Part shown: one piece after another, positions 17,473 through 56,286 of the stretch
Numbering within the stretch: the stretch's first letter is position 1
How the letters are laid out: every line of letters starts with the position of its first letter
Source of the DNA: Spirochaetia bacterium
GTDB taxonomy: Bacteria > Spirochaetota > Spirochaetia > CADAEX01
Length of the DNA stretch: 64,000 nucleotides
NCBI GenBank assembly: GCA_017554185.1
Contig: JAFZIU010000106.1
Span: 4,338 to 68,337 of the forward strand
Direction: 5' to 3'
The notes under the pieces: generated by a model
What the model was told of the DNA's origin: nothing
What the model saw: only the letters and a program-made list of their open reading frames with translations
Database searches by the model: none
Program-made: the position numbers and the translations under genes

Positions 17473-17645
17473 CTTTTTGTTATTTAAATTATGAAAAAAA
17501 ATACTCAAAAATCGGCCTGTTGGTAAAATCAGAAGGTAGAAGAAAAAACCATAATATAGTAAACTTTTTTCGGCTATATAAATATAGTCTATACTTTACG
17601 GAGTATGAACGTAAGTTTCACATAATAACCGACAGGAGGATTAAG

Positions 17646-19196: not shown

Positions 19197-19210
19197 TATT
19201 GGAGTAGAGT

Positions 19211-19558
19211 ATGGATATAGAAGTATTCAGCTATACACTGGTTTCCACAATCGTCGGACTTTTTGTGGTATTCTCCTTCCTTGCTATCCTGGCTATCGTC
19301 ATGGTTATCCTGGGAAAATGGGATATTGCAAAATCCAAGAAAGCAGCTCCTAAGGCTGCAGCTGCCGCTCCTGCCGCACAGGCAGAGGCTCCGAAGGCAG
19401 AGAGCATGGACTGGCTTATCGCTGCTGTAGCCGCATTTGTGGCACAGGACGAGGAGCCTGTATCTGCAGAGGCATGGACACCAAGTGATATTTTAAGAGA
19501 GAGCCCATGGGCAAAGGCACCGCGGGTATCAAAAAGACTTTCTGGAGTTAACAGATGA
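19211..19558 (+). CDS. mmdD: Na+-decarboxylase gamma/delta subunit (OadG/MmdD family)
   Basis: 115 aa, single N-terminal TM, Ala/Pro-rich linker, OadG-like architecture. Confidence 0.7.
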   Translation: MDIEVFSYTLVSTIVGLFVVFSFLAILAIVMVILGKWDIAKSKKAAPKAAAAAPAAQAEAPKAESMDWLIAAVAAFVAQDEEPVSAEAWTPSDILRESPWAKAPRVSKRLSGVNR

Positions 19559-19980
19559 AAAAAGAGATTAATTTTGAGTTCGATGGTAACAAGTATAAAG
19601 TAGACGTTGAGTCAGACGGTGAAAACCTTGTTATCACAAAAGATGGAAAGACATACAATGTAAAGCTTATCGGCGGCGCTGCTAAGAAGCCAGCTCCACG
19701 GAAGGCTCCTGCTGCAGCACCTGCAGCAGCTCCTGTTGCCGCTCCTGCACCAGTTGCAGCTGCAGGCGCAAAGGACGTAGTAGCCCCAATGCCTGGAACA
19801 ATCAAGGATGTAAAGGTAAAGGTCGGCGACGCAGTGAAGAACGGACAGCTGGTCTGCATCATGGAAGCTATGAAGATGGATATGGAAGTGTTTGCTTCTG
19901 CTGACGGAACTGTAGCTGAAGTTTGCCTTGCAGGCGGTTCCAGCGTACAGAAGGGCCAGGCTATCGTTAAACTGGCATAA
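19555..19980 (+). CDS. mmdC: biotin carboxyl carrier protein subunit
   Basis: Ala/Pro linker then biotinyl domain with [12 protein letters not shown] (EAMKM biotin-lysine motif). Confidence 0.85.
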
Positions 19981-19991
19981 GGGGTAATTGC

Positions 19992-21107
19992 ATGTTTGAA
20001 TTATTGACAAATTTCTTGTCCAATACAGGTTTTGCAAACCTTACATGGCAGTACCTGGTCATGATCGGCATGGGCTGTTTCCTGCTGTATCTGGGTATTG
20101 TGCGTGGGTTTGAGCCGCTGCTCCTGGTTCCGATCGGATTCGGTTGTATTCTCTGCAACCTTCCTATCACAGGACTTATGGAGGAAGGCGGTCTGCTTAG
20201 GTACTTCTATTTCGGAGTAGAGCACGGTCTGTTCCCACCTATCATCTTCCTTGGTATCGGTGCAATGACAGACTTCGGTCCGCTTCTGGCAAACCCGATC
20301 ACATTCCTTCTGGGTGCAGCTGCCCAGCTGGGTATCTTCGTCACCCTTATCGGAGCAAGAGCCCTGGGATTCACATTCTGTGAAGCTGCTTCCATCGGTA
20401 TCATCGGCGGAGCCGACGGTCCTACCGCTATCTTCCTGACATCCAAGCTGGCACCGCACCTCCTGGGACCTATCGCTGTTGCAGCATACTCCTACATGGC
20501 ACTGGTTCCATTTATCCAGCCACCTATCATCAAGGCTCTTACCTCCAAGAAAGACCGGATGATCCACATGGCAGAGGTACGGCAGGCTTCCAAGACTGTA
20601 AAGATCCTGTTCCCTATCATCGTATGTATCCTGGCATCATTGCTGGTACCAGATGCAGCATCCCTTTTAGGTATGCTCATGCTGGGTAACCTGTTCAAGG
20701 AGTGCGGTGTTACAGAAAGACTTACCAAGACAGCTGGAAACGAGCTTATCAACATCGTTACCATCTTCCTGGGTCTTGCAGTAGGTTCCAAGATGTCTGC
20801 AGAGCACTTCCTGACAATCCAGACAATCATGATCATCTGTATGGGTCTGGTTGCATTCTGTTTCGGAACTGCAGGTGGAGTTCTCCTGGGACAGCTTCTC
20901 AAGATCATCACAAAGGGCAGAGTAAACCCGATGATCGGTGCTGCCGGAGTATCGGCTGTACCAATGGCTGCCAGAGTAGTCCAGAAGGTAGGACAGCAGG
21001 AAGATCCTTCCAACTTCCTCCTTATGAACGCTATGGGACCGAACGTTGCCGGAGTTATCGGATCTGCAGTTGCTGCAGGTATCCTCCTTTCTCTGTCACG
21101 CGGCTGA
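19992..21107 (+). CDS. mmdB: Na+-transporting decarboxylase beta subunit (OadB/MmdB)
   Basis: 371 aa polytopic membrane protein with OadB-family conserved stretches ([23 protein letters not shown]). Confidence 0.85.
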
Positions 21108-33337: not shown

Positions 33338-33892
33338 ATGGGCAAGTATTATGAGATGAACATCGTGGGCTGCATCCGCAGGCTTCCCATCGTAAGAATA
33401 GAAGACAATCTGGATATCGCAAGCTTTGTCCTCCTGGGAGACGCAGAGCTGGTTGTAAAGGCTGCCCAGGTGCTGGACAGCAAACTGCCGGAGGCCGATT
33501 ATCTAATCACAGCCGAGGCCAAGGGTATTCCGCTGGTTCAGGAACTTGCCCGGCTCCGCAATATGAAACGCTATTTTGTTGCGCGCAAAAGCGTAAAGCC
33601 GTATATGACAGATCCCTTTGTCACCGAAGTCTATTCAATAACCACCAAGAAAAAGCAGATCCTGTGCCTGGACAAGGAGGAGAGCGACCTTATCAATGGC
33701 AAGAGGATCCTTATTGTGGATGATGTTATCAGCACAGGCGAGTCCCTTAAGGCTATGGAGACCCTGGTGGAGAAGGCCGGAGGCAATATTGTGGGCAAGG
33801 CCTGCATCCTGGCCGAGGGCGATGCAAAGAACCGCAAGGATATCATTTATCTCGAGGCACTTCCTGTATTCCCGGTTACTAACGAAAGATAG
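33338..33892 (+). CDS. type I phosphoribosyltransferase, adenine-PRTase-like
   Basis: Apt-like layout: hood region, KRILIVDDVISTGESL PRPP-binding loop (variant of VLIVDDLLATGGT); first gene of ECF operon, AGGAGGGGG RBS. Confidence 0.6.
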   Translation: MGKYYEMNIVGCIRRLPIVRIEDNLDIASFVLLGDAELVVKAAQVLDSKLPEADYLITAEAKGIPLVQELARLRNMKRYFVARKSVKPYMTDPFVTEVYSITTKKKQILCLDKEESDLINGKRILIVDDVISTGESLKAMETLVEKAGGNIVGKACILAEGDAKNRKDIIYLEALPVFPVTNER

Positions 33893-33901
33893 GCATAAGA
33901 A

Positions 33902-35566
33902 ATGGACTACAGGGTAGAGGGCATAACCTATAAATACAGCAAGGACGGCAGAACTGTCCTGGACAATGTGAGCTTTTCCATTGAACAGGGAAAGGTTACA
34001 GCCATAGTAGGTCCTTCGGGCTGCGGCAAGACTACGCTGCTTGAGATCTTGAGCGGAGTCATCCCCACACTTATTTCCAGCGGGCAGCTGTCCGGCACAT
34101 TCCAGAAGCCGGAAGACAGCCTGGTAAGTGTTGTAAGCCAGACACCGGAGAACCAGCTTTTCGGCTACGGGGTGGAGGATGCCATTGCATTCGGCCTTGA
34201 GAACATGGGTATTCCGCAGGCAGAGATTGCACAGCGGATGGACTATGTTCTTGATCTTTTAAGCCTGCAGTATCTGCGGGCCCGGAGCGTGGCAAACCTT
34301 TCGGGCGGCCAGCGGCAGGCTGTGTGTATAGCATCGGTTCTTGCAATGCAGCCCGACATCCTTATCATGGACGAGCCTGTAAGCTCGCTGGACCCTAACG
34401 GCAAGAGCCTTGTACAGATGGTGCTCAAGCAGATAAGCCTGGACGGAAACACTGTAATACTGGTGGACAACAACCTGGTATGGTCTGCCGGCATAGTGGA
34501 CCATGTAATAGGAATGATGGACGGCAAGGTGGTGTTCGACGGCAGCAAGGAGGATTTCTTCCAGGACTTCGAGCTGCAGCATAAGCTGGGGGTGATCATA
34601 CCTCAGGAGGTTGAGCTCTACCGCGGTCTTCTCCCATATTTCCCCAAGCTCAAGATGTTCTATACAGTAGAGGACGGTCTTATGCAGCTTGCAGAGATGG
34701 TGAACACCAAGCTGTTTGCAAAAAGCTACACAGAAGAGGAGGAGACAGGGGAGAGCATAATATCGGTGCATAACCTTGAGAAGGTGTTCAGCGACAACTT
34801 CCATGCCCTTAAGGATGTGAATGCCAATATCCCGAAGGGGAAGATAACAGCTGTCCTGGGGCAGAACGGATCGGGCAAGACCACTTTTGTAAAGCATCTG
34901 AACGGTCTTTATAAGCCTACTACCGGTGATGTGCGCTACAAGGGCGAATCGCTTCTGGAGAAGTCTGTGGCCCAGATATCACGGAACATAATACTGGTGT
35001 TCCAGCACCCGGAGCATATGCTGTTCGAGGAGACAGTGGAGGCCGAGCTCACATTCTGCGCACGTATGCAGAATATCCCGTTCACCGAGGAAAAGATAAC
35101 CGAGGTGCTTACCAAGTACAATCTGCTTGAAGAAAGGAATACCTTCCCCCTCAACCTTTCCATGGGCAAGAAGCATACACTTACTATTCTTTCTGTCCTT
35201 TTCTCCAGTGCCGATGTAATCATACTTGATGAGCCTACACTGGGCATGGACGGCTTCCTTATGAAAGAACTGGAGGCCCTGATAAAAGGACTTAAGGAGC
35301 AGGGGAAGACTGTAATTATAATAAGCCACGAGATTCCTATGGTGTTCCGCACTGTGGACGATGCCATCATCCTGAACAACGGAAATAAGATATTCCAGGG
35401 GACCAAGCAGCAGCTGGCGATCCGCGATGATATTTTCGACAAGATACATATTTCGATGCCTCCTGCAGTGGTTATGTCCAAGGCACTGGGCTTTGACAAG
35501 ATCTGCTACAATGTTGATGAGTTTGTAGAACAGGCCAAGGCTTTGACAAGAAAGGAGGCAGAGTGA
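33902..35566 (+). CDS. ECF transporter fused tandem ATPase (EcfA-EcfA')
   Basis: Two ABC modules with Walker A GPSGCGKTT and GQNGSGKTT, two LSGGQ-like signatures (LSGGQRQAV; LSMGKKHTL). Confidence 0.85.
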   Translation: MDYRVEGITYKYSKDGRTVLDNVSFSIEQGKVTAIVGPSGCGKTTLLEILSGVIPTLISSGQLSGTFQKPEDSLVSVVSQTPENQLFGYGVEDAIAFGLENMGIPQAEIAQRMDYVLDLLSLQYLRARSVANLSGGQRQAVCIASVLAMQPDILIMDEPVSSLDPNGKSLVQMVLKQISLDGNTVILVDNNLVWSAGIVDHVIGMMDGKVVFDGSKEDFFQDFELQHKLGVIIPQEVELYRGLLPYFPKLKMFYTVEDGLMQLAEMVNTKLFAKSYTEEEETGESIISVHNLEKVFSDNFHALKDVNANIPKGKITAVLGQNGSGKTTFVKHLNGLYKPTTGDVRYKGESLLEKSVAQISRNIILVFQHPEHMLFEETVEAELTFCARMQNIPFTEEKITEVLTKYNLLEERNTFPLNLSMGKKHTLTILSVLFSSADVIILDEPTLGMDGFLMKELEALIKGLKEQGKTVIIISHEIPMVFRTVDDAIILNNGNKIFQGTKQQLAIRDDIFDKIHISMPPAVVMSKALGFDKICYNVDEFVEQAKALTRKEAE

Positions 35567-36387
35567 TGGATTATCTGAAGTACGTCGACTCAAGCTCCTT
35601 CCTCCATAAGCTGGATCCAAGGACCAAGTTTGCTTTCTTTGTGGCCATGGCTGTCCTCACCAGCGTCATAAAATCCTTTGTGGCACTGACATTCCTGCTC
35701 TTATTCTTCATAGGAATGTGGAAAAGCTGTCATATAGGGACCCAGATCCTGACACTGCTTGCAAAGCTTAAGATACTGCTTCTGTTCATCTTCCTGCTGT
35801 GGTCTATTCTGGGTATGTTCTCTGTCCCCGAGGTGGATGGAGGCCCTATATTCTTCCAGACCACATTCAGCTGGATGGGGAAGCCGCATATCTTCTGCTT
35901 CGACTGGTATGACCTGTATAAGGGTGCAGTCTATCCTCTGCGTATATTCCTTATGATTTCCTCTTTCTACACCGTGCTCCTGACCACCAACTTCAGCGAG
36001 ATGATACTTGGACTGCGCAAGTGGCATATCCCTTATTCTGTGGCATTTGCCATCGGTCTTATCTTCCAGATCATCCCGATTACCATTAACGAGCTCCAGG
36101 CCATCATGGATGCCCAGAGTTCCCGGGGACTTGAGATAGACAAATGCGGCTGGGCCACAAAGGTCAAGAATTATGTCACATTCTCGTTCCCGCTGCTGTT
36201 CAGGGTTATTGGAAAAGGACAGGCTATTTCCCTGGCCATGCACTACTACAAGCTGGACTTCTCGGTCAAGCGGACTGCATACAAGGTTATAAAGGCCAGC
36301 AGGCTTGATATTTACTTCGTTGCTGCAAATGTTGTGGCAATCGCTATAACTATAGTGCTCAGAATTATGTACTACATACCGGTCTGA
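35563..36387 (+). CDS. ECF transporter transmembrane component EcfT (CbiQ family)
   Basis: 274 aa, 5-6 TM, CbiQ/EcfT family layout with conserved coupling-helix region (FAIGLIFQIIPITINE...RG); 4-nt overlap with EcfA. Confidence 0.75.
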   Translation: MMDYLKYVDSSSFLHKLDPRTKFAFFVAMAVLTSVIKSFVALTFLLLFFIGMWKSCHIGTQILTLLAKLKILLLFIFLLWSILGMFSVPEVDGGPIFFQTTFSWMGKPHIFCFDWYDLYKGAVYPLRIFLMISSFYTVLLTTNFSEMILGLRKWHIPYSVAFAIGLIFQIIPITINELQAIMDAQSSRGLEIDKCGWATKVKNYVTFSFPLLFRVIGKGQAISLAMHYYKLDFSVKRTAYKVIKASRLDIYFVAANVVAIAITIVLRIMYYIPV

Positions 36388-36402
36388 GCAGGAGGAGGTT
36401 TT

Positions 36403-37182
36403 ATGATTAAACGATGGGAAGAACTTACCAGAGATGAAATAGGGGCCCTGGATAAGGACAAGAGCATAGTGGCTCTGCCGCTCTCTGCCACCGAGCAGCA
36501 TGGTGCGCATCTTCCTGTGGGAACCGATGCCATCATTCTCTCCACATTGATCGACAAGATTATAGAAGGGGAGAAGTTCGAGAAGGGCAACCTTATCTTT
36601 GCCCCTCAGTTTTTGATTGGAAAGAGCAACGAGCACATGTGCTTCCCTGGCACCCTTACATTCAAGGCAAAGACCTACTACTCCATGATCTACGATATTG
36701 CAGGAAGCATAGCTCACCACGGCTTCAAGAAGCTGGTGCTGTTCAACAGCCACGGCGGAAACACCGATATGGCAAACCTTATAAGCAGGGATCTGCGGAT
36801 TGATTTCGGGCTGCAGGTGTTTGTGTTTGACTGGTGGTTCACCGACTTCTGGGCCGACGGTCTTAAGGGGCTCAAGGAGTCCGGCATGTACGGTGTCTTC
36901 CATGCCTGCGAGCTGGAGACAAGCCTTATGCTGGAGGCAAGGCCCGACCTGGTCTACATGGACAAGGCTGTGGACGAGGATCCTGCCGACTGCTTCAAGG
37001 GCGACAAGTATGTTACAGTCTTCGGACCTGTGAATGCGGGCTGGAAGACCAACGATGTGACAAAGAGCGGTGTAATCGGGGCACCTACATTTGCCACAGC
37101 AGAAAAGGGGAAAAAGCTTTTTGATTACGCGTGCAAGAAGCTTATTAATATATTCAGCGAAATTGCAGATATAAATTATTGA
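36403..37182 (+). CDS. creatininase-family amidohydrolase (creatinine amidohydrolase / ArfB formamidopyrimidine-nucleotide deformylase family)
   Basis: N-terminus IVALPLSATEQHGAHLPVGTDAII and later HGGN...ELETS conserved metal-binding residues of creatininase fold. Confidence 0.7.
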   Translation: MIKRWEELTRDEIGALDKDKSIVALPLSATEQHGAHLPVGTDAIILSTLIDKIIEGEKFEKGNLIFAPQFLIGKSNEHMCFPGTLTFKAKTYYSMIYDIAGSIAHHGFKKLVLFNSHGGNTDMANLISRDLRIDFGLQVFVFDWWFTDFWADGLKGLKESGMYGVFHACELETSLMLEARPDLVYMDKAVDEDPADCFKGDKYVTVFGPVNAGWKTNDVTKSGVIGAPTFATAEKGKKLFDYACKKLINIFSEIADINY

Positions 37183-37196
37183 AAAGAGAGGGAAAC

Positions 37197-37784
37197 ATGG
37201 CTAAAAAATTCTCATTCGTCAATATCATCTTCTTTGTAGTATTTGGTGTATTGACTGGAGTTCTCTGGGCATACCTGTGCCCAATTCCACTTATTCCTGG
37301 AGCAGTTCACTTCAGGACATTCGCTTTTATCATTCCGGTTATCGGCTATCTCTTCGGACCTGTTACAGGATTCTTTGCAGGCTATATCGGAACACTTGTA
37401 TGGTCTCTGCTTTCAGGAATGTTCATTCCGCTGCATTCTCCGATTGCAGATGGTATCACAGTAGGTCTTTCTGCAGCACTTCCTGCATTCTTCCATCTTA
37501 AGAATGGAAAGATTGACCTTGTAGAGCTTATTGATCAGAACAAGAAAGCATTTATTGGAAAGTGTCTTTTCTTAAGCGTATTCTTCGGTATCCTCATGAT
37601 CCTTTCCACCAGTGCTTCTCTTGCTTATTTCCTTATGGGCGAGCAGAGCTATATGGAGAATTACATTTTCTGTATCGTCTGGATTGGAATCGCCGATGTA
37701 GTGCCTATCGCTCTTACTCCATTTGTTGTTGTTCTCCTTGCAAAACGGATGAAGAACATCAGAAACATCATTCCATACGTATAA
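37197..37784 (+). CDS. ECF transporter substrate-specific (S) component, unknown substrate
   Basis: 195 aa, 6 TM; start at ATG 37197 after GAGAGGG; paralogous to S component at 60653-61198 (shared FGPVTxFxAGxxGTxxxxxLSG block at identical spacing). Confidence 0.6.
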   Translation: MAKKFSFVNIIFFVVFGVLTGVLWAYLCPIPLIPGAVHFRTFAFIIPVIGYLFGPVTGFFAGYIGTLVWSLLSGMFIPLHSPIADGITVGLSAALPAFFHLKNGKIDLVELIDQNKKAFIGKCLFLSVFFGILMILSTSASLAYFLMGEQSYMENYIFCIVWIGIADVVPIALTPFVVVLLAKRMKNIRNIIPYV

Positions 37785-37813
37785 ATGAAAATATAAAAGA
37801 CACGCGTAAACAA

Positions 37814-37842
37814 AGCCGGGGCACCCACCCCGGTTTTTTTTA
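37814..37842 (+). terminator. rho-independent terminator after ECF operon
   Basis: CCGGGG-caccca-CCCCGG then T8. Confidence 0.8.
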
Positions 37843-37944
37843 TCGAGCTGTACCCTTATCTGTGCTCTAATATTGACTATCTTAAGTGTTTGTGGTACAA
37901 AAGCTATACATGCGTTGACGAAAATCCAGTAGGACGCCGATAAC

Positions 37945-38160
37945 CTTCCAAGAGAGCTGCCGGGCGGTGCAAGGCAGTGGAGGCCGGTGCTCCGAATTAC
38001 CTTTCCGAGCAGCGCCTTGAAACACCCCCAAGGTGGAGTAGTGGTCGCCGGGTCCGCCCGTTACAGCGCAAGGGTATGTCTGTACCTGATAAGGCTCTTC
38101 CTGCGAAGGTAGGGCAAACAGAGGTGGTACCGCGGGAACTCTCGCCCTCTGTGTTTTCTT
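37945..38160 (+). promoter_or_regulatory. T-box riboswitch leader with intrinsic terminator
   Basis: AGAGAG 37951-56, GGTGCAA 37966-72, GAGTAG 38036-41, F-box CCGTTA 38058-63, exact T-box core GGTGGTACCGCGG 38123-35, terminator ACAGAGG...(GCGGG-aact-CTCGC)...CCTCTGT 38118-38152 then GTTTTCTTT. Confidence 0.75.
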
Positions 38161-38198
38161 TAGATAAACACCGGGATTACATTTTTAGGAGAATCATA

Positions 38199-39839: not shown

Positions 39840-40658
39840 ATGGGTCTTATCTCCTCCCTCTACGAGAAAAAGAAGATGTCCCTGGTCATGGGGATACTCA
39901 ATGTCACACCAGACTCCTTCTATGCCGCAAGCAGGAAGGAGTCGGTCTCTTCTGCCCTTGATGCAGCCCTGGCTATGGAACAGGACGGTGCAGATATCAT
40001 CGATATCGGGGCAGAGAGCACAAGACCTGGCTTCACACCAGTGAGCGCCGAAGAGGAGAGAGAGCGTATAATCCCTGTAATAAAAGAGATCCGGAAGCAC
40101 ACAGCAGTCCCCATCTCGGTGGATACCCGTAAGGGTGCTGTGGCACAGGCGGCTCTGGATGCAGGGGCCCACATTGTTAACGATATTTCTGCCGGCACCT
40201 ATGATTTTTCAATAATTCAAATTGTAAAAAATTATAAATGTGATATTATATTAATGCACAGTCAGGAAAAGGCTCTTTATTCTGATGTGGTGAAAGAGGT
40301 CAGGGACTATCTTTTGTCCCGTGCCGAAGCCTTTAAGAACGCTGGTGTTCCGGCAGACAAGATTACGCTGGATCCGGGCTTAGGCTTTGGGAAGGATACG
40401 GAGCACAACCTTGATTTGATGCGCCAGATGGGGCAGATTGCAGCGCTGGGTTACCCGGTTCTCATAGGGTGTTCCAGAAAGCGCTTTGTAGGTGCAGTGA
40501 CTGGTGCCGATGTGGAAGGCAGGCTGGCCGGGACACTGGCGGTTAACGCCTTTGCCGCTGCCCATGGTGCTGCTGTGCTCAGGGTTCATGATGTGAGGGA
40601 GACATCTGATATGGTCAAGATGCTCTTCTCCCTTGGAGATATTGCAGTCAGGAGGTGA
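39840..40658 (+). CDS. folP: dihydropteroate synthase
   Basis: Pterin-binding domain MGILNVTPDSFY, ...DIGAESTRPG, LIGCSRKRF. Confidence 0.85.
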   Translation: MGLISSLYEKKKMSLVMGILNVTPDSFYAASRKESVSSALDAALAMEQDGADIIDIGAESTRPGFTPVSAEEERERIIPVIKEIRKHTAVPISVDTRKGAVAQAALDAGAHIVNDISAGTYDFSIIQIVKNYKCDIILMHSQEKALYSDVVKEVRDYLLSRAEAFKNAGVPADKITLDPGLGFGKDTEHNLDLMRQMGQIAALGYPVLIGCSRKRFVGAVTGADVEGRLAGTLAVNAFAAAHGAAVLRVHDVRETSDMVKMLFSLGDIAVRR

Positions 40659-40661
40659 CGA

Positions 40662-41453
40662 TTGGAAAGTTTAGTCTCTTTCTTCTCAACCTATATCCGG
40701 CCGTTCCTGGATGTGGTTGTCCTTGCTTTTCTGATCTATCAGGTTTATAAGATTCTCCTCCAGAACAACGCCCTCCCTGCCATCAAAGGTGTGGTTGCGG
40801 CCGCAGCTCTCTATGCTCTTGCCTTTATCCTTAAGCTTGATACAATACTCTGGATACTCAACAGGCTGGCTGGTGCTCTTATCATCATCGTTGTAATCAT
40901 CTTCCAGTCCGAGATCCGAAACTTCTTTATCAAAGTGGGACAGAGCCGCTTCCTGCAGAGGCGCCACAGGACAATCGGAACCGAGGTTGAGTCTGTAGTA
41001 AGCGCAGCAGAGATTCTATCTTCTATGAAGAGGGGAGCCCTGATTGTCTTTTCCCGTCAGACCGGACTTAAGAACATAATAGATACAGGAACAATCCTGA
41101 ATGCAGATATCTCATCAAGCCTTATCGTAACTATTTTCGGTAAAGATACTGCGCTGCATGACGGAGCCATCATCATAGCTGGAAAGAAGATTGTGGCTGC
41201 TGGATGCTTCCTGCCGCTCTCGGAACAGAAGGGAATAAGAAAAAGCTTTGGAACACGGCACAGGGCTGCCCTGGGAACAGCAGAGACCACCGATGCAGTT
41301 GTCTTGATTGTATCAGAAGAGTCCGGTGCAATCTCTCTGGCTTACAATTCTAACATCTATTATGAACTTAAGCATGATGAGCTCTTGAGCACTCTGAATA
41401 ATCTGGTGGTACTGGGACTTGCCCAGAGCGACAGCGGGGAGGATGAGGAATGA
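40662..41453 (+). CDS. cdaA: diadenylate cyclase CdaA (c-di-AMP synthase)
   Basis: N-terminal TM helices, DAC domain with TALHDGAIII, GTRHRAALG, SEESGAIS motifs. Confidence 0.9.
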   Translation: MESLVSFFSTYIRPFLDVVVLAFLIYQVYKILLQNNALPAIKGVVAAAALYALAFILKLDTILWILNRLAGALIIIVVIIFQSEIRNFFIKVGQSRFLQRRHRTIGTEVESVVSAAEILSSMKRGALIVFSRQTGLKNIIDTGTILNADISSSLIVTIFGKDTALHDGAIIIAGKKIVAAGCFLPLSEQKGIRKSFGTRHRAALGTAETTDAVVLIVSEESGAISLAYNSNIYYELKHDELLSTLNNLVVLGLAQSDSGEDEE

Positions 41454-42493
41454 ATCTTGGAAGATCTTTCAAAATTATCACCCGGAACTGGGCTGCAAAG
41501 CTTTTCTGCTTTGCTATTGCCGTTGTCATTGTGCTGTTCAACAGGATGAGCAAGATAGAGGAGCGTACTGTGAATGTTCCTTTCAAGCTCTATACAAACA
41601 CCGAATATATGACCACCCAGGATATTCCTCGGACTATCAAGGTATTGCTGCGTGGAAACAAGGATGACATCTATTCTATCATGGGAACTGATCTTACCGC
41701 TTTTGCAGATTTCACCAATGTGGCAGAGAACGGGAGCTACGACAGACCCATAAAGATAGAGCGCAGTGGAAGTGCTCTGTACATAACTCCGCTGGAGATT
41801 CATACAACACCTAACCAGGTCAATTTTGCCTTCGAGCGCAAGACTATAAAGCGTATTCCGCTGGAGCCTGTGATAAAAGGAACACCTGCCGAAGGATACG
41901 AGATCTCTGGTACACTCCTTTCCCCGAACTTTGTGACAGTTGAAGGCCCCGAGAGCGTCCTTGATTCGATTTCTTCTTTCAAGACCACCTCTGTGGATCT
42001 GGACGGTCACTCCGACAACTTCTCTGTCCAGGTCGGAGTTGAGAACAACAGTAAATTTGTACGCGTCCTCAATTCTGATGTAAGGCTTTCACTGAGTATT
42101 GCTAAGATTATGGTTGTAAGGACAGTCCAGAATGTAACTATACTGCTGGCCCATTGTCCTGATGACCTGACTGCAGTGCCAAATGTTCAGGCCGGTTCCA
42201 TCAAGCTGGAAGTAAACAGCCAGAGGGCAGATACCATATCTGCATCCTCCATGAAGCTGGTGGCAGAGCTCGGCAACATCAAGGAGCCTGGAACATATGT
42301 GCTTCCTCTTAAGCCTGCAATACCAAAGAGTATGAACATGGTCGGCTTCTCGCCGGATACTGTGGAGATAACTGTCACTTCCAAGAACATTACACCACAG
42401 GATACACCTGCAGAACCGGCGGCCGCAGCCCCTGCAGAAGCACCGGCCCCAGCCCCAGCCCCAGCTGCACCAGCAGAAAAACCTGCTCAGTAA
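41450..42493 (+). CDS. cdaR: YbbR-domain protein (CdaR, regulator of CdaA)
   Basis: N-terminal TM, repeated YbbR-like beta domains, Pro/Ala-rich C-terminus; follows cdaA with 4-nt overlap. Confidence 0.75.
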   Translation: MNLGRSFKIITRNWAAKLFCFAIAVVIVLFNRMSKIEERTVNVPFKLYTNTEYMTTQDIPRTIKVLLRGNKDDIYSIMGTDLTAFADFTNVAENGSYDRPIKIERSGSALYITPLEIHTTPNQVNFAFERKTIKRIPLEPVIKGTPAEGYEISGTLLSPNFVTVEGPESVLDSISSFKTTSVDLDGHSDNFSVQVGVENNSKFVRVLNSDVRLSLSIAKIMVVRTVQNVTILLAHCPDDLTAVPNVQAGSIKLEVNSQRADTISASSMKLVAELGNIKEPGTYVLPLKPAIPKSMNMVGFSPDTVEITVTSKNITPQDTPAEPAAAAPAEAPAPAPAPAAPAEKPAQ

Positions 42494-42505
42494 AAGAGGT
42501 AAGCC

Positions 42506-43249
42506 TTGGCAAATATCAAGCTTACTGTTGCATATGACGGTACAGCCTACTGCGGCTGGCAGATTCAGAATGATGACGACACAATCCAGGGACGCATGGA
42601 GAAAGCCCTTGAGAAGCTGCATGGCCACCCTGTAAAGCTGACCGGGGCAGGGCGCACCGATTCAGGTGTCCATGCCAGGGGACAGTGCGCCAACTTCATC
42701 ACCGACATGGCTATGCCTGTGGAGAAGTTCAGGGAGGCCCTAAACTCTTTTTTGCCGCCCGATATCAGGATTCTTAAAAGCGAGGAGGTGGAGGATAGCT
42801 TCCATGCCCGCTATGACGCTACAGAGCGCATTTATAAATACTATATGCTGCCCAGAGCTTTGAGCTATCCCTGGCTTGAGCGGTACTGTCTGACTTTGAA
42901 GTGCGCACCCGACATAAACAGGCTGAATGAACTGGCAGCCCCATTGGTAGGATTGCATTCCTTTTCATCCTTTGCATCTGTGATGGAGGATGGCTATCCC
43001 ATGGAGCGGACAGTGAACTCTGCTGTGTTCTACCAGAAGAACGGCTACACTGTGTTCAAGATATCAGCCGACGGCTTTTTAAGACGCATGGTGCGCTCCA
43101 TTGTGGGCACTGTGCTTGATCTGTATGAGAAAGGGGAGGATGGAAAAGCCATGAAGGCTGTCCTCGATGCCCGGGACCGTTCTGCGGCAGGAGCCTGTGC
43201 AGCTGCCAAAGGACTTTTCCTCGACCAGGTGATATATGGGAAACATTGA
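42506..43249 (+). CDS. truA: tRNA pseudouridine(38-40) synthase TruA
   Basis: LTVAYDGTAYCGWQIQ and GAGRTDSGVHARGQ catalytic Asp motif. Confidence 0.9.
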   Translation: MANIKLTVAYDGTAYCGWQIQNDDDTIQGRMEKALEKLHGHPVKLTGAGRTDSGVHARGQCANFITDMAMPVEKFREALNSFLPPDIRILKSEEVEDSFHARYDATERIYKYYMLPRALSYPWLERYCLTLKCAPDINRLNELAAPLVGLHSFSSFASVMEDGYPMERTVNSAVFYQKNGYTVFKISADGFLRRMVRSIVGTVLDLYEKGEDGKAMKAVLDARDRSAAGACAAAKGLFLDQVIYGKH

Positions 43250-43916
43250 ATCTGAATTATACAAATTGATTGATAATACTCAGGACTATATACAGTACGG
43301 CATGATATCGGACAGGAAACTGCCCGAGATGATGCTTAAGAAAGAGGTTCCCGATTCACTTGAGAAGATTGCGGGAGAGGTTGCCCAGTGCAGCAGATGC
43401 AGGCTTTGCGAGAAGCGGAAGAATGTGGTGCCTGGAATAGGTGTGCTTAACCCCGATGTGCTGGTGGTGGGCGAAGGCCCGGGCGGCGACGAGGATATCC
43501 AGGGGCTTCCGTTTGTAGGAAGGGCGGGCCAGTACCTGGACAAGTGGCTTGATGCAATAGGGCTTTCAAGGCATACCAACTGCTTTATCGGCAATGTGGT
43601 AAAGTGCCGCCCGCCTATGAACAGGGACCCGCAGCCCGATGAGATAGCATCCTGCCTGCCGTATCTAGAGCGCCAGATTGCCATTATCAAACCCAAGTTC
43701 ATACTCACCGTAGGCCGCATCTCATCGGCTGTCCTTGCAGGACAGGAGGCCGGAATCGGCCGGCTGCGGGGCAGAACGTACAGCTTTAGGGGCATTCCCC
43801 TTATTCCCACCTACCACCCCAGTGCAGTGCTCCGGGATCCGAGCCTGAGAAAGCCTGTATGGGACGACCTTCGCCGTCTTAAGGCCGAGCTTGAAGAGAT
43901 AAAGAATGTTCATTAA
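43236..43916 (+). CDS. family 4 uracil-DNA glycosylase (4Fe-4S)
   Basis: CSRCRLC...GEGPGGDEDIQGLPFVGRAGQ...VKCRPP motifs of UDG family 4. Confidence 0.85.
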   Translation: MGNIESELYKLIDNTQDYIQYGMISDRKLPEMMLKKEVPDSLEKIAGEVAQCSRCRLCEKRKNVVPGIGVLNPDVLVVGEGPGGDEDIQGLPFVGRAGQYLDKWLDAIGLSRHTNCFIGNVVKCRPPMNRDPQPDEIASCLPYLERQIAIIKPKFILTVGRISSAVLAGQEAGIGRLRGRTYSFRGIPLIPTYHPSAVLRDPSLRKPVWDDLRRLKAELEEIKNVH

Positions 43917-45858
43917 AGTTGCCTTCAACCTTCCGCTTAAGAAAGTGTTCACATACCTTCCTCCCGAAAAAGGGGAGTGTGCGGTGGGAATGCGGGTCAA
44001 GGCCCCTTTCGGCCGCCGGGAGGTGCAGGGCTTTGTGGTGGAAGTTGCCGAAAGCCTGGACGAGGATGTATCAAACCTTAAGGCAATAACCAAAATAATG
44101 GAGAGCGAGCCTCTCTTCGATAAATCTACATGGCAGACAGCCCTCTGGATTGCCGACATGTATATGTGCGGCTGGGGCGAGGCTCTCTATGCCATGCTGC
44201 CAGGCGGCAAGCGGGAGAAAGACCTTGAGGACGAGATGGAGGGCTCCTATGGGCTTCCAGGCTCTATCACCCTTACCGACGAACAGCAGAATGCCGTGAA
44301 CAGCGTTCTTGAAGGCACAGAATCCCTTTTCTATATCCACGGCATAACAGGAAGCGGCAAGACCGAAGTGTTCCTTACTCTGGCCGAGAAAATGCTTGAA
44401 GAGGGCAGGGGAATCATCTACCTGGTTCCTGAGATTGCCCTGACCCACCAGATGGTGGATGCAGTCAAGAAGCGGTTTGCCGACACAGTAGCTGTGCTCC
44501 ATTCGGCCCTTACACCGGCCCAGCGCCTTAAGCAGTGGCGCCGTATACAGAGCGGGGAAGCCAAGGTGGTCATCGGAGCAAGGAGCGGCATATTTGCCCC
44601 GGTCCAGAACCTGGGACTTATCATAATAGACGAGGAGCACGAGAACTCCTATAAATCGGGCTCTTCCCCGCGGTACCATGCACGGCAGGTTGCCATGTAC
44701 AGAGCCAAGAAAGAGAAAGCCAAGCTGGTCATGGGCAGCGCAACTCCGTCGGTAGAGGCTTACCACCTTATGGAGAATGGGACTATAAAGAGGCTTTCTC
44801 TTACCAGGCGTGTATCGGGCGGTCAGCTGCCCCAGATACAGGTGGTGGACATGAGCAAGGAGCATTATGCGATTTCTTATGTGCTCCGTAAAGAGATTAC
44901 CAGGGTATGTGCAGAGGGCAGGCAGGTTATCCTCTTCCTGAACCGCCGCGGTTTCTTCTACAACTTCTCCTGTATCGACTGCGGCTACGAGGCAAAGTGT
45001 TCCCACTGCTCCATACCGCTTACATATCATAAGGACAGAGGTCTTTTGATTTGCCACTACTGCGGCTACTCCCAGCGCCCGGAGCGGGCCTGCCCGCAGT
45101 GCGGCTCGCTTCAGGTGGGGTACGGCGGCTTCGGCACCGAGAAGATAGAGGACGACATACAGCGCCTTTTCCCCCACCTGCGTACCCTCCGCCTGGACAG
45201 CGACACCGCGACCGACAAAGGGCATACCAAGACAGTGCTGGACAGCTTTGCAAAAGGGGAGGCCGATATCCTTTTAGGCACCCAGATGGTGGCCAAGGGC
45301 TTCAACTTCCCGAAGGTGTCGCTGGTGGGCATTATCCTGGCCGATACTACGCTGCAGATGCCGGATTTCCGTTCTGCCGAACGGACATTCTCGCTCCTTA
45401 CCCAGGTGTCGGGCCGGGCCGGGCGCTATTCGGCCGGCGGCAAAGTCATTATCCAGACGTGCAGGCCTGCAAGCTATGCCATAGCCTGTGCTGCCGCCTT
45501 GGATGAGAAAGGCTTCTACAAGCAGGAACTTATGTCCCGTAAGATGCTGGGTTTCCCGCCGTTTTCCAGGCTTTTCCGCTTTGTGTTCCGCAGCAAGAAC
45601 CAGGAAAAGGCATCGGGAGCTGCCTCTGACTTTGCCCAGATGCTGTCACAGATGCAGCCTTCCGGTTACCGTTTCCAGATGCTGGGGCCGGCCGAATGCC
45701 CATTGGCTGTGATTTCAGATAACTACAGATATCAGATTATTATTAATACAGACAGGTTTGCCTCTGCCCACGGCATTCTTTCGGCAGCTTTGGCTGCCTT
45801 CAAAGCCCCATCCGGTGTCTATGTGGAAGCAGATGTGGATCCTTTGAGCCTTATGTAA
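43906..45858 (+). CDS. priA: primosomal protein N' (replication restart helicase PriA)
   Basis: 650 aa, Walker A GITGSGKT, DExH IIIDEEHE, Cys-rich zinc module CIDCGYEAKCSHCS...CHYCGY...CPQCGS. Confidence 0.95.
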   Translation: MFIKVAFNLPLKKVFTYLPPEKGECAVGMRVKAPFGRREVQGFVVEVAESLDEDVSNLKAITKIMESEPLFDKSTWQTALWIADMYMCGWGEALYAMLPGGKREKDLEDEMEGSYGLPGSITLTDEQQNAVNSVLEGTESLFYIHGITGSGKTEVFLTLAEKMLEEGRGIIYLVPEIALTHQMVDAVKKRFADTVAVLHSALTPAQRLKQWRRIQSGEAKVVIGARSGIFAPVQNLGLIIIDEEHENSYKSGSSPRYHARQVAMYRAKKEKAKLVMGSATPSVEAYHLMENGTIKRLSLTRRVSGGQLPQIQVVDMSKEHYAISYVLRKEITRVCAEGRQVILFLNRRGFFYNFSCIDCGYEAKCSHCSIPLTYHKDRGLLICHYCGYSQRPERACPQCGSLQVGYGGFGTEKIEDDIQRLFPHLRTLRLDSDTATDKGHTKTVLDSFAKGEADILLGTQMVAKGFNFPKVSLVGIILADTTLQMPDFRSAERTFSLLTQVSGRAGRYSAGGKVIIQTCRPASYAIACAAALDEKGFYKQELMSRKMLGFPPFSRLFRFVFRSKNQEKASGAASDFAQMLSQMQPSGYRFQMLGPAECPLAVISDNYRYQIIINTDRFASAHGILSAALAAFKAPSGVYVEADVDPLSLM

Positions 45859-52695: not shown

Positions 52696-52768
52696 GCCGC
52701 TGTAGCTCAGTTGGTAGAGCAATAGACTGAAAATCTATGTGTCATCAGTTCGATTCTGATCGGTGGCA
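52696..52768 (+). tRNA. tRNA-Phe (anticodon GAA)
   Basis: GCCGCTGTAGCTCAGTTGGTAGAGCAATAGACTGAAAATCTATGTGTCATCAGTTCGATTCTGATCGGTGGCA: cloverleaf with D-loop AGCTCAGTTGGTAGAGC, anticodon loop CTGAAAA, T-loop GTTCGATTC; upstream TTGACA-17-TATAAA promoter at 52655-52683. Confidence 0.9.
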
Positions 52769-54657: not shown

Positions 54658-56286
54658 ATGAAAAAGATTCCAGTTCTGACACTTAAGATTGTAACTCTTA
54701 TAGCAGTAGCCAGCTTATTACTGAGCACGGCTCTGTTCTTTATCGGTTATACCCAGTTTGAGCGGCAGTTTGACCGGCAGTACAAGTCCCATATTCTCTC
54801 TATAGCCCATACTGCAAGGGAATTTTTAAATGCCGACTTGTTCGAGGAATATCTTAAGACCAACAAACCCGACGGCTCCTGGTATGCAGTCCATGATGTA
54901 CTGCAGAAGATGGTAAACAAGTTCAATCTGGACCTGATGTATGTCTCCTGTGTAGAGCCCCCGGAATTCACCAAGATTCATTATATTTATAACCCAGTAC
55001 GTCCCGCTGGCCGGTTTAAAGAATACCCTATGGGATACACCGAGAATTATGTGCAGAAAAAATATAACGAGTCGGCTCACCGTATTTTTGAGAAAGGGGA
55101 GGAGCTGGTACGTCATACCCCGGATTCAAAAAGCGGTCCCCATATAACAGCCAATATTCCGGTGCGCAACAGTATGGGGGCTGTAGTGGCCATGCTGGGT
55201 GTCAGGTTGCCTACCCAAGAATTTGTGGATGTCCAGAAAACTTATATCTACTGGACACTTTTGACCCAAGGTATTCTTCTGCTTATCTACATCATTTTCT
55301 TTGTATACTATTATCGTAAGCAGTTTATAAACCCGATGCTGGCTATAACCAAGGAGGCCCAGCGGTTTGCCTCCGACTCAAGCAGGATAACTGATATAAC
55401 TAAGACAGTTAAGAACAGGGACGAGATAGGTACCCTTGCCCAGTCTGTTAATAAAATGGAAAAGGATATCCAGGATTATATTACAAACCTTACCAAAGTC
55501 ACCTCCGAAAAGGAGCGGATGAACACAGAACTTAACATTGCCACCGGAATACAGGCGGGGCTTCTGCGAAAGGATTTCATAGAGGAGAATACTGTCTCGA
55601 TCAGGGCCAGCATGACCCCTGCCAAGGAGGTAGGCGGCGACTTTTATGACTTTTCTATGCTGGACGACCACCACGCTCTGGCCATTGTGGCCGATGTATC
55701 GGGCAAAGGGGTGCCAGCCGCCCTGTTCATGGCCATGGGCACCACACTGCTCCGGGATCACATAGCCCTTATGCTCCGCAGCAGCACATCTCTGGTAAGC
55801 GAAGTTGGGCTGGTGAACAACATACTTTGCCGTAACAACGAAGGCGGGCTTTTTATAACAGCGTGGATAGGAATTCTGAATACCCAGACAGGGCGGCTGG
55901 CCTACATTGATGCAGGCCACAACCCACCTATGATCAAGCTTGGGGCCGGCGATTTCGCATTCATTCCAAGGGCAAAGAAAGGGCTTCCGCTGGCATCTAT
56001 GGAGGACTTCCCCTATAAACTCAATGAGATTTTCCTCAAGCCGGGAGACAGGCTCTTCCTATACACAGATGGTGTAACCGAGGCTCAGAACAAAGAGCAG
56101 AAACTGTTTGGCGAAGATCAGCTGCTTCAGTATGCCGTATCACATCAGGCCGAGACCCAGGCTCAGTTCATGGAGAATCTTATTAAAGCCCTGGCCGATT
56201 TCCAGAGCGGCTGCGACCAGTTCGACGACATAACTATGTTGATGATGGACTACAAGGCAGAAGCCGGCTGTTCCGAAGATAAATAA
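54658..56286 (+). CDS. membrane sensor PP2C-type serine phosphatase (periplasmic domain-HAMP-SpoIIE/PP2C)
   Basis: N-terminal TM, ~160 aa extracytoplasmic domain, second TM, HAMP (MLAITKEAQRFASD...), C-terminal PP2C/SpoIIE domain (GGDFYDF...DVSGKG...YTDGVTEA). Confidence 0.8.
   Translation: MKKIPVLTLKIVTLIAVASLLLSTALFFIGYTQFERQFDRQYKSHILSIAHTAREFLNADLFEEYLKTNKPDGSWYAVHDVLQKMVNKFNLDLMYVSCVEPPEFTKIHYIYNPVRPAGRFKEYPMGYTENYVQKKYNESAHRIFEKGEELVRHTPDSKSGPHITANIPVRNSMGAVVAMLGVRLPTQEFVDVQKTYIYWTLLTQGILLLIYIIFFVYYYRKQFINPMLAITKEAQRFASDSSRITDITKTVKNRDEIGTLAQSVNKMEKDIQDYITNLTKVTSEKERMNTELNIATGIQAGLLRKDFIEENTVSIRASMTPAKEVGGDFYDFSMLDDHHALAIVADVSGKGVPAALFMAMGTTLLRDHIALMLRSSTSLVSEVGLVNNILCRNNEGGLFITAWIGILNTQTGRLAYIDAGHNPPMIKLGAGDFAFIPRAKKGLPLASMEDFPYKLNEIFLKPGDRLFLYTDGVTEAQNKEQKLFGEDQLLQYAVSHQAETQAQFMENLIKALADFQSGCDQFDDITMLMMDYKAEAGCSEDK

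Follow-up and report, generated by a model that had tools for sequence, protein, structure and literature searches.

The locus and its T-box leader

The 64,000-nucleotide window analyzed here (positions 4,338 to 68,337 of the forward strand of contig JAFZIU010000106.1, assembly GCA_017554185.1, Spirochaetia bacterium) carries on its + strand a T-box leader, followed by a gene for an adenylate-forming ligase of the ANL superfamily and by folP-cdaA-ybbR-truA-udg-priA, a gene order that an earlier prediction made from the sequence had read correctly (Table 1). The leader is a genuine class-I, i.e., transcriptional-type, T-box leader. In a scan with Rfam 15 it matches the full model RF00230 (positions 1–219) with 95.6 bits and an E value of 1.1e-19, over the gathering score of 93 bits, and next to one tRNA it is the only match above threshold in the whole window (n = 2). 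This agrees with the original prediction of a canonical class-I sensing domain, which was built on short motifs that are all present on the + strand at the positions given for them, namely AGAGAG (37951–37956), GGTGCAA (37966–37972), GAGTAG (38036–38041), CCGTTA (38058–38063) and GGTGGTACCGCGG (38123–38135). The element had been placed at 37945–38160, which captures the T-box and misses its beginning: the true start lies about 40 nt upstream, so that the 5′ strand of Stem I with the K-turn and the AGUA had been cut off. With this strand included, Stem I forms with a specifier loop as expected, the K-turn, S-turn, AG bulge and distal loop being present and the helices covarying.

Because the score barely passes the threshold, independent support for the T-box was sought. 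A leader sequence profile (nhmmer) built from the window leader and 11 leaders located 5′ of homologous genes recovers the same element at more than 45 related loci with E values down to 1e-61. Many of the loci with a homologous leader score 100–140 bits against RF00230, and the leader of locus L170 from the Spirochaetia metagenome-assembled genome (MAG) GCA_024402405.1 reaches 125.2 bits. When 30 leaders are aligned, the Rfam-derived structure is 88% paired compared to 35–53% with the 3′ partners slid by one to three columns, and 31 of the 45 base pairs are altered on both sides, showing covariation. In the region of Stem II and Stem IIA/B, helix 6 covaries and helix 7 is invariant in these leaders. 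The z-score of the minimum free energy of the whole leader is unremarkable (−0.15), a value that is uninformative for a multi-domain switch.

Moreover, the window was compared with five contigs encoding ligases that are 88–97% identical to that of the window (six members, referred to as the window lineage). The 293-nt leader is 86–94% identical within this lineage, whereas the four-fold degenerate sites of the ligase gene are only 47–64% identical and the 300 nt 5′ of the leader are not alignable, which argues that the spirochaete leader is being maintained, apparently by purifying selection. The substitutions in Stem II and Stem III of the spirochaete lineage are compensatory. Upstream of the leader, the promoter-like TTGACT and TGgTACAAA are kept in six of six members, up to the point where similarity stops. 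A simple promoter scan did not call this element (37873–37901), because its −10 sequence does not end in T. The strong terminator further upstream would insulate the T-box unit from upstream transcription, and it shows that the organism does use canonical intrinsic terminators.

Table 1. Features of the leader, its flanks and the genes behind it (positions in the window).
Feature	Position	Strand	Basis or remark
Canonical intrinsic terminator of upstream ECF-S-like gene	37812–37841	+	Terminator scan: 10 pairs and T8 run
Promoter-like element	−35 TTGACT 37873–37878; extended −10 TGgTACAAA 37893–37901	+	17-nt spacer; read from sequence
T-box leader (Stem I, Stem II, Stem IIA/B, Stem III, antiterminator)	37906–38152	+	RF00230
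Stem I	37912–38010	+	Rfam alignment, pair coordinates, covariation of helices 1–5
K-turn of Stem I, UGA / GAGC		+	Rfam alignment
S-turn of specifier loop	AGUA 37928–37931; GAA 37994–37996	+	Rfam alignment
Specifier loop of Stem I, 5′ strand AUCCAGUA, 3′ strand GAAUUACC		+	Rfam alignment
AG bulge AGAGAG	37951–37956	+	Rfam alignment
Distal loop GGGCGGUGCAAGG	37962–37974	+	Rfam alignment
Likely specifier UAC (Tyr)	37998–38000	+	Followed by C38001 and helix UUUC 38002–38005
Stem II	38013–38047	+	Rfam alignment
Stem IIA/B with F-box CCGUUA	F-box 38058–38063; ends 38068	+	Rfam alignment
Stem III	38094–38115	+	Six of seven pairs altered on both sides across the family
Antiterminator	38118–38152	+	Rfam structure line; −14.4 kcal/mol
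Antiterminator helix A1, ACAGAGG / CCUCUGU	38118–38124 / 38146–38152	+	
T-box bulge UGGUACC, 7 nt	38125–38131	+	UGGU reads discriminator A
Antiterminator helix A2, GCGGG / CUCGC		+	Covaries
Conserved T-box sequence AGAGGUGGUACCGCGG including the 13-mer GGTGGTACCGCGG	38120–38135; 13-mer 38123–38135	+	
Weak hairpin CCC-UCU-GUGUUU / AAACAC-C-GGG	38145–38175	+	About −8.4 kcal/mol
AUUACA, then U5, 3′ of weak hairpin	U5 38182–38186	+	Candidate weak terminator
U-rich tract GUUUUCUUU directly 3′ of antiterminator	38153–38161	+	Invariant in lineage
Shine-Dalgarno AGGAGA	38187–38192	+	Ligase ATG at 38199, 7 nt after; read from sequence; homologues start MVIT
ANL-superfamily adenylate-forming ligase, 545 aa	38199–39836	+	Pfam
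folP-cdaA-ybbR-truA-udg-priA	39840–45858	+	Tightly packed behind ligase
folP	39840–40658	+	
cdaA	40662–41453	+	

The ligase family and the origin of the cassette

The first gene behind the leader had been described as an ANL-family ligase, and its domains bear this out. The product matches PF00501 (AMP-binding, 2e-72) and PF13193 (AMP-binding_C, 1e-10), and neither the motif SSGTTGFPK nor the lysine of the C-terminal GKIEK varies among 12 homologues, i.e., the N- and C-terminal domains, the SSGTTGxPK signature and the catalytic lysine of the superfamily are all present. No NCBIfam model reaches its cut-off for the ligase, the best one being the "long-chain-fatty-acid-CoA ligase" subfamily PRK06187 with 414 bits versus 476 and the rest scoring far lower, and the nearest structures in the PDB are the mycobacterial FadD13 and FadD5 (E 4e-69). 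Thousands of relatives are very close; 8000 candidates all have E values below 1e-30. Ligases with 67–77% identity are encoded in Oscillospiraceae, Lachnospiraceae, Ruminococcus, Victivallales, Thermoguttaceae, Smithella and Dehalobacter, and close relatives are also found in many gut and rumen metagenome contigs.

The neighbors of the ligase gene were mapped by tblastn over 161 non-redundant ligase loci, and a conserved cluster emerged that is found in Clostridia and other anaerobes and often begins with a Tyr or Phe T-box. At 86 of the loci, iorA and iorB encoding an arylpyruvate/indolepyruvate:ferredoxin oxidoreductase (IOR) lie beside the ligase gene, and at 43 a Na+/solute symporter (SSF) is encoded nearby. 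The cluster includes a PaaK-like ligase (about 430 aa) at 32 loci, in many cases accompanied by genes for an ACT protein and an aminotransferase. A Spirochaetales MAG contains ligase-iorA-iorB-aminotransferase as one block. Upstream sequence sufficed for a T-box search at 150 loci, and at 36 of them a T-box precedes the ligase or an SSF-ligase pair; the association of ligase and T-box is thus recurrent in Firmicutes and not exceptional. The original prediction had proposed that either the lineage range or the regulon of T-boxes is being extended; the extension in lineage is plausible, while a regulon unique to this organism does not hold, given that Tyr/Phe T-boxes precede the ligase family in many Clostridia.

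At the Pseudoflavonifractor locus L015 two T-boxes are present (5705–5952 and 7727–7966). The Tyr-type T-box (UAC; CAA replaces the usual GAA) precedes the 545-aa ligase and the Phe-type T-box (UUC) precedes iorA-iorB-paaK, which hints that the two ligases may divide aryl acids or serve different aromatic amino acids. T-boxes turn genes on when the cognate tRNA is uncharged, and therefore ligase and iorAB genes headed by Tyr or Phe T-boxes should raise the aromatic amino-acid supply. In Methanococcus maripaludis aryl acids feed aromatic amino-acid synthesis via IOR (as cited in PMC4162585), and for Bacteroides a 2026 paper identified the IOR-linked AMP-forming ligase as an arylacetate-CoA ligase and proposed an anabolic route (PMC13285125). 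The genomic context suggests that the ligase of the window most likely converts aromatic acids imported by the cell, for example an arylacetate, into their CoA thioesters. In a literature search, no publication turned up that connects T-boxes to iorAB, phenylacetate or the 545-aa ligase family.

The regions ahead of the ligase differ among the loci. At L081–L084 (11970–12243), on a spore-forming Clostridium-like contig, a Phe T-box is located ahead of iorA-iorB-paaK-ACT-aminotransferase and not of the 545-aa ligase, which lies 4 kb upstream behind a different leader. The T-box 2.8 kb 5′ of the ligase at L044 belongs to asnS-asnA and is unrelated to the ligase. The ligase-iorAB loci L094–L099 (77–79% identity; one ligase is labelled Spirochaetales by NCBI) have no T-box and carry the adjacent perfect palindromes GTTATTATAATAAC and TTGTAATTTATTACAA just 5′ of a TTGACC promoter, about 60–140 nt before the ligase start (L094 4880–4960); these look like operators of a DNA-binding regulator that replaced the T-box. 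The last about 120 nt before the ligase at the Clostridial loci L002, L005, L009 and L081, also without a T-box there, contain a promoter TTGACTTTAGCG...TAAAAT and directly after it a hairpin of the T-box-terminator type, GUCCUCUGC...GCAGAGG with a U-run, which could be a remnant after loss of the sensing domain or a different short attenuator. At L045, from a Thermoguttaceae MAG, at least five copies of the tandem repeat AGAGAAAGTCAG are present 5′ of the ligase (about 5790–5880).

Among spirochaetes, leader and ligase occur separately from the genes that follow them in the window. Two related Spirochaetia contigs (L168 and L169; PriA 65% and 70% identical) contain folP-cdaA-ybbR-truA-udg-priA without leader or ligase. 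Both also keep the genes beyond priA, encoding a HEAT-repeat protein, ZapA, L20, L35 and IF3, and have argS or a divergent trkA ahead of folP. One cassette-free folP-priA contig comes from MAG GCA_024402405.1. A different contig of this MAG (L170) has the leader together with a ligase of 83% identity, flanked on one side by the gene of an SNF-family transporter and on the other by a convergent trkH. The presence of folP-priA without the cassette and of the cassette without folP argues that leader and ligase form a unit, moving as one cassette, and that folP-priA merely lies downstream. The latter is an ancestral spirochaete operon, whose place behind the T-box is a lineage-specific juxtaposition and no designed regulon. 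The SNF-family Na+ symporter of L170 (1139–2524) is encoded directly 5′ of the T-box and outside its control; some bacterial members of the SNF family transport tyrosine or other hydrophobic amino acids. L169 contains a cobalamin riboswitch (335–459; Rfam 53.1 bits) ahead of a TonB-dependent receptor.

In a neighbor-joining tree of 159 ligases, the window lineage groups with T-box-less ligase-iorAB loci and with those loci whose T-box belongs to the GAAUUACC class, and Clostridia with Tyr/Phe T-boxes are adjacent to this group. Together with the identity of the ligase to those of Oscillospiraceae (77%) as compared to the PriA identities among spirochaetes (55–70%), this placement points to a horizontal transfer of the cassette to Spirochaetia from a Clostridia-like donor. 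The base composition, with a GC content of 0.47–0.54 across cassette and flanks, was considered as a sign of recent transfer and is uninformative.

In the window the gap between ligase and folP is 3 nt (39836/39840) and in all members of the lineage it is 3–8 nt. Because of this small gap, and because a scan of the junction detected nothing on the + strand that resembles a promoter or a terminator, folP-priA is likely co-transcribed with the ligase. An internal folP promoter was considered and finds support neither in a promoter-like site nor in raised synonymous conservation at the ligase 3′ end, which was not seen; these two findings leave room for one.

Expression platform and tRNA identity

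In every non-spirochaete relative examined, the leader ends in a canonical CCUCUG...CAGAGG terminator with U6–7, in which the antiterminator 3′ strand CGUCCUCUG pairs with a downstream CAGAGGACG and the U-run follows at once; in 19 of these relatives the terminator side is 7–20 kcal/mol more stable than the antiterminator. The 3′ arm of this terminator is gone in the window lineage and in L170. The ACAGAGG...CCUCUGU pairing that had been taken for an intrinsic terminator is, according to the Rfam structure, the antiterminator helix A1 around the UGGUACC bulge. Of the antiterminator/terminator alternative that had been expected, a mutually exclusive hairpin does exist and a canonical strong terminator does not. 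The weak hairpin 38145–38175, the only structure that competes with the antiterminator, overlaps the 3′ strand of A1, sharing C38146–47 and G38151–U38152 with the antiterminator, and it is neither more stable than the antiterminator nor adjoined by a U-run. Its arms are invariant while its loop and the spacer behind it vary (L088–L093, L170), and therefore the weak hairpin seems to matter. The variable spacer of 5–6 nt is followed by U5–6 just 5′ of the Shine-Dalgarno sequence in the window lineage and L170, and the tail of the L170 hairpin, UAUUAUUUUUU, resembles a terminator tail more. A low-amplitude canonical switch is favored over constitutive read-through and over a rewired switch, because it follows the logic of all relatives and because the competing hairpin is conserved. 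Translational control was considered and rejected: no segment of the leader is a good anti-Shine-Dalgarno sequence, and the only pairing, UUUUCUU/AGGAGAA, is weak, can form alongside the antiterminator and has been lost in L089.

It is conceivable, and in our view rather unlikely, that only the sensing domain is intact and that attenuation was lost in spirochaetes, the leader being read through constitutively and kept for mRNA stability, tRNA-dependent fine-tuning or pausing. An antiterminator that matches the alternative state in stability (−14.4 versus −13.9 kcal/mol, a difference of +0.5) and that is transcribed first would fit such a loss, as would the absence of the canonical CCUCUG...CAGAGG terminator with U6 and the fact that A1 is a perfect 7-bp helix in the window lineage only. 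However, conservation of the whole leader, with the specifier loop, Stem II, Stem III and the two arms of the weak hairpin included, by far exceeds that of synonymous sites, the leader is kept in a second Spirochaetia lineage (ligase 83%, PriA 65% identity), and a pure relic would decay. A decay of the terminator due to the essential folP and cdaA downstream was considered as well and is unsupported, as GCA_024402405.1 has the same platform with the ligase alone downstream.

Two places had been suggested for the specifier. The CGAAUUACC loop indeed holds it; the G-UUA-C loop is the F-box. On the 3′ side of the specifier loop the homologous leaders fall into three classes: GAA-UAC-(C/A), corresponding to Tyr, at about 20 loci; GAA-UUC-(C/A), corresponding to Phe, at about 10 loci including L081–L084 (ahead of iorA) and the second T-box of L015; and the GAAUUACC loop in the window lineage, L117, L100/L120 and L170. 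The loop of the third class has 8+8 nt compared to 7+7 nt elsewhere, each strand being 1 nt longer, and in the window it reads GAAU-UAC-C ahead of the UUUC helix that the Tyr class also has. The UGGU bulge indicates discriminator A, which suits Tyr, Phe and Leu alike; we take UAC together with UGGU to be consistent with a tRNA-Tyr(GUA) carrying A73. In the default register of TBDB the specifier occupies positions 2–4 from the 3′ end of the bulge (PMC7778990), and this register yields UAC (37998–38000) on the window loop, whereas counting from GAA yields UUA (Leu). In TBDB, UAC makes up 99% of the Tyr specifiers, UUC 99% of the Phe specifiers and UUA 1% of the Leu specifiers (PMC7778990, Table 1), and there is a structural preference for C at the third specifier position (PMC7778990). 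From the register, the specifier frequencies, the preference for C and the UGGU bulge we infer with moderate confidence that the T-box of the window is most likely Tyr-specific. The sole tRNA gene in the window encodes tRNA-Phe(GAA) (52696–52768), and an orthologous tRNA gene is found at the syntenic place in L168.

A leucine-responsive leader is unlikely. Here UUA after the S-turn GAA would be the specifier, tRNA-Leu(UAA) would be sensed and the ligase would serve leucine supply, for instance by activation of isovalerate followed by reductive carboxylation. The codon directly follows GAA in the 7-nt loops of the family and the same register gives UUA in the window, tRNA-Leu also fits discriminator A, and loops of 8/8 nt recur as a conserved subclass in the window lineage and in L117, L100/L120 and L170 and do not represent a random indel. 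However, the 3′-anchored TBDB register yields UAC, and UUA, at 1% of the Leu specifiers, violates the rule of a C at the third position (PMC7778990). Moreover, UACC-UUUC is identical to the Tyr-class relatives, and the ligases of the subclass are as close to those of the Tyr/Phe classes as the latter are among themselves and have the same SSF neighbor.

It is equally doubtful that the acquired T-box was rewired, so that tRNA-Tyr charging would gate the ligase and folP-cdaA-...-priA by a non-canonical, possibly inverted or thermodynamic mechanism. If true, the T-box would provide housekeeping genes, in this case an essential operon for folate, c-di-AMP and replication restart, with a general sensor of growth or starvation. 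Very unlikely is the idea that the hairpin 38118–38152 together with GUUUUCUUU is the real terminator, with tRNA binding to the bulge modulating termination by an altered or inverted logic. The energy of −14.4 kcal/mol and the perfect 7-bp basal helix would suit a terminator, and the hairpin adjoins a tract (six U in 8 nt) without any variation across the window lineage and L170. This tract right after the antiterminator, GUUUUCUU, makes the antiterminator terminator-like; part of it is merely loop in the alternative hairpin, and the Clostridial homologues have no U-tract at that position. However, the invariant 3′ arm AAACACCGGG would be left unexplained, being transcribed after the decision point, and shutting transcription off upon starvation runs counter to how all homologous leaders of the family work. 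Furthermore, terminators do not usually contain a bulge of 7 nt, and the terminator scan did not call this hairpin. That the T-box match is a chance resemblance or a dead, functionless fragment, as its narrow score and the z-score of −0.15 might suggest, is practically refuted by the E value of 1.1e-19 across the full model, by homologous leaders reaching 140 bits and by the strong covariation and purifying selection.

Genomic context, proposed mechanism and significance

The host is, as judged from its genes, a Spirochaetia bacterium: all named PriA relatives belong to MAGs of Spirochaetia, Spirochaetales or Spirochaetota, with identities falling from 92% to 65–70% and to about 55%, in line with the earlier impression of a spirochaete-like window. 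The genes behind the ligase are separated by 3-nt gaps or overlap, and udg encodes a family-4 uracil-DNA glycosylase. The rest of the window consists of chromosomal housekeeping genes, namely mnmE, mnmG, rsmG, dnaK, dnaJ, xseA, clpB, a gene for an H+-PPase, purA and purB. A cluster at 33338–37784 combines ECF-type genes, for a fused double-ATPase protein, a T component and an S-component-like membrane protein that matches the riboflavin S component only weakly, with genes for a phosphoribosyltransferase and a creatininase-family amidohydrolase. This cluster adjoins the cassette also in L089 and L093, where an extra 1–1.4 kb (L089 3743–4708, L093 3300–4710) lies between the ECF-S-like gene and the T-box promoter that is absent from the window (37785–37905); the boundary 5′ of the cassette thereby resembles a rearrangement hot spot. 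A carboxyltransferase and an OAD-beta subunit are encoded at 17520–21107, which suggests a Na+-pumping methylmalonyl-CoA or oxaloacetate decarboxylase, and a SpoIIE-type PP2C phosphatase is encoded at 54658–56286; all of these are ordinary context genes.

The explanation that we consider best, with a probability of roughly 60%, combines a Tyr T-box, an attenuated ligase operon, aryl-acid salvage and a horizontally acquired cassette. The leader would be transcribed from the conserved promoter 37873–37901, the UAC specifier of Stem I would sense tRNA-Tyr and the UGGU bulge would check the free 3′ end of the discriminator-A tRNA. Uncharged tRNA-Tyr would stabilize the antiterminator (38118–38152) and allow transcription into the gene of the 545-aa ligase, and transcription would run on into folP-cdaA-ybbR-truA-udg-priA, because the junction shows no sign of a terminator or promoter. 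Without stabilization by the tRNA, the weak hairpin and the U-rich tail (38145–38186) would attenuate transcription. In the salvage route, an aromatic acid would be taken up and converted to its CoA thioester by the AMP-forming ligase, IOR would catalyze the reductive carboxylation to the arylpyruvate, and transamination would yield Tyr or Phe.

Several observations weigh against this explanation. The leader exceeds the RF00230 threshold by 2.6 bits. The two states of the expression platform are iso-energetic across the window lineage (+0.1 to +0.5 kcal/mol), and the competing hairpin alone has only about −8.4 kcal/mol with its U5 6 nt away from the stem; by thermodynamics alone the leader should default to read-through. 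The specifier loop with 8 instead of 7 nt per side leaves room for UUA (Leu), and no tRNA-Tyr gene is present within the 64-kb window. For the ligase, no characterized close homologue is found in the PDB or NCBIfam, so that its proposed substrate is derived from the neighbors in other genomes only. No homologue of iorAB, SSF or PaaK is encoded in the window, in which the ligase is followed by folP, and the ligase does not adjoin iorA/iorB in the other members of the window lineage either. Finally, the ligase tree has no support values.

With respect to known systems, T-boxes were reported only from Firmicutes, Actinobacteria, Chloroflexi, Deinococcus-Thermus and Geobacter (PMC3766115), and a count over six Spirochaetes genomes gave zero (PMC2494555, Table 3). 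Because the published surveys report no T-boxes in Spirochaetes, an extension of the T-box lineage range to Spirochaetota is plausible. New are the phylum, without earlier reported T-boxes in the searchable literature, the regulon member and an expression platform without a canonical strong terminator. The leader resembles class-I T-boxes such as the Bacillus subtilis tyrS and glyQS leaders in Stem I with its K-turn, S-turn specifier loop, AG bulge and distal loop, in Stem II, Stem IIA/B with the F-box and Stem III, in the 14-nt T-box sequence and the UGGN bulge of the antiterminator, and in the preferred UAC. Unlike the B. subtilis leaders, it is found in Spirochaetota and targets an ANL ligase instead of a tRNA synthetase, a classical biosynthetic gene or a transporter. 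It also has a loop of 8+8 instead of 7+7 nt, a weak iso-energetic terminator set apart from its U-run, and a U-tract abutting the antiterminator.

The closest counterparts are the Clostridial Tyr/Phe leaders (L001, L013–L015, L022–L028, L033, L040, L057, L081 and others), which are homologous leaders preceding the same ligase family (67–77%) and have the T-box core GAGGUGGUACC(G/A)CGG at the same position relative to the ligase start. In contrast to the window, where leader and ligase alone stand before folP, they have canonical CCUCUG...CAGAGG terminators with U6–7 and usually head SSF-ligase-iorAB-paaK. The IOR-dependent aryl-acid route of Methanococcus maripaludis and Bacteroides (PMC13285125) is similar in that the genes of an AMP-forming ligase, of iorAB and of an aminotransferase are linked in the genome. 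However, the ligase of the window is a 545-aa FadD-like ANL enzyme and not of the PaaK type of about 430 aa, which also occurs in the clusters, and no iorAB is found nearby. An enlarged specifier loop with overlapping triplets, here UUA, UAC and ACC, recalls the two-codon T-box of Clostridium acetobutylicum (Saad et al., 2013, cited in PMC7778990). That case is a precedent for register ambiguity only, and a reading of more than one tRNA by the window leader is not indicated.

As a summary, a selectively maintained, functional-looking T-box is present in Spirochaetota, which would have arrived as a portable cassette of leader and gene that needs only the RNA polymerase and the tRNA of the host. 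The Tyr/Phe specifiers act as a built-in label for a very abundant, highly conserved and uncharacterized ligase family of gut and rumen anaerobes and for its iorAB neighbors, and this label makes the substrate of the ligase directly testable. Moreover, induction by uncharged aromatic tRNA argues for the anabolic direction, i.e., from aryl acid to amino acid, a direction that is debated for the IOR systems of the gut. Finally, the spirochaete leader, conserved without a strong terminator, constitutes a natural experiment on the minimal expression platform of a T-box.

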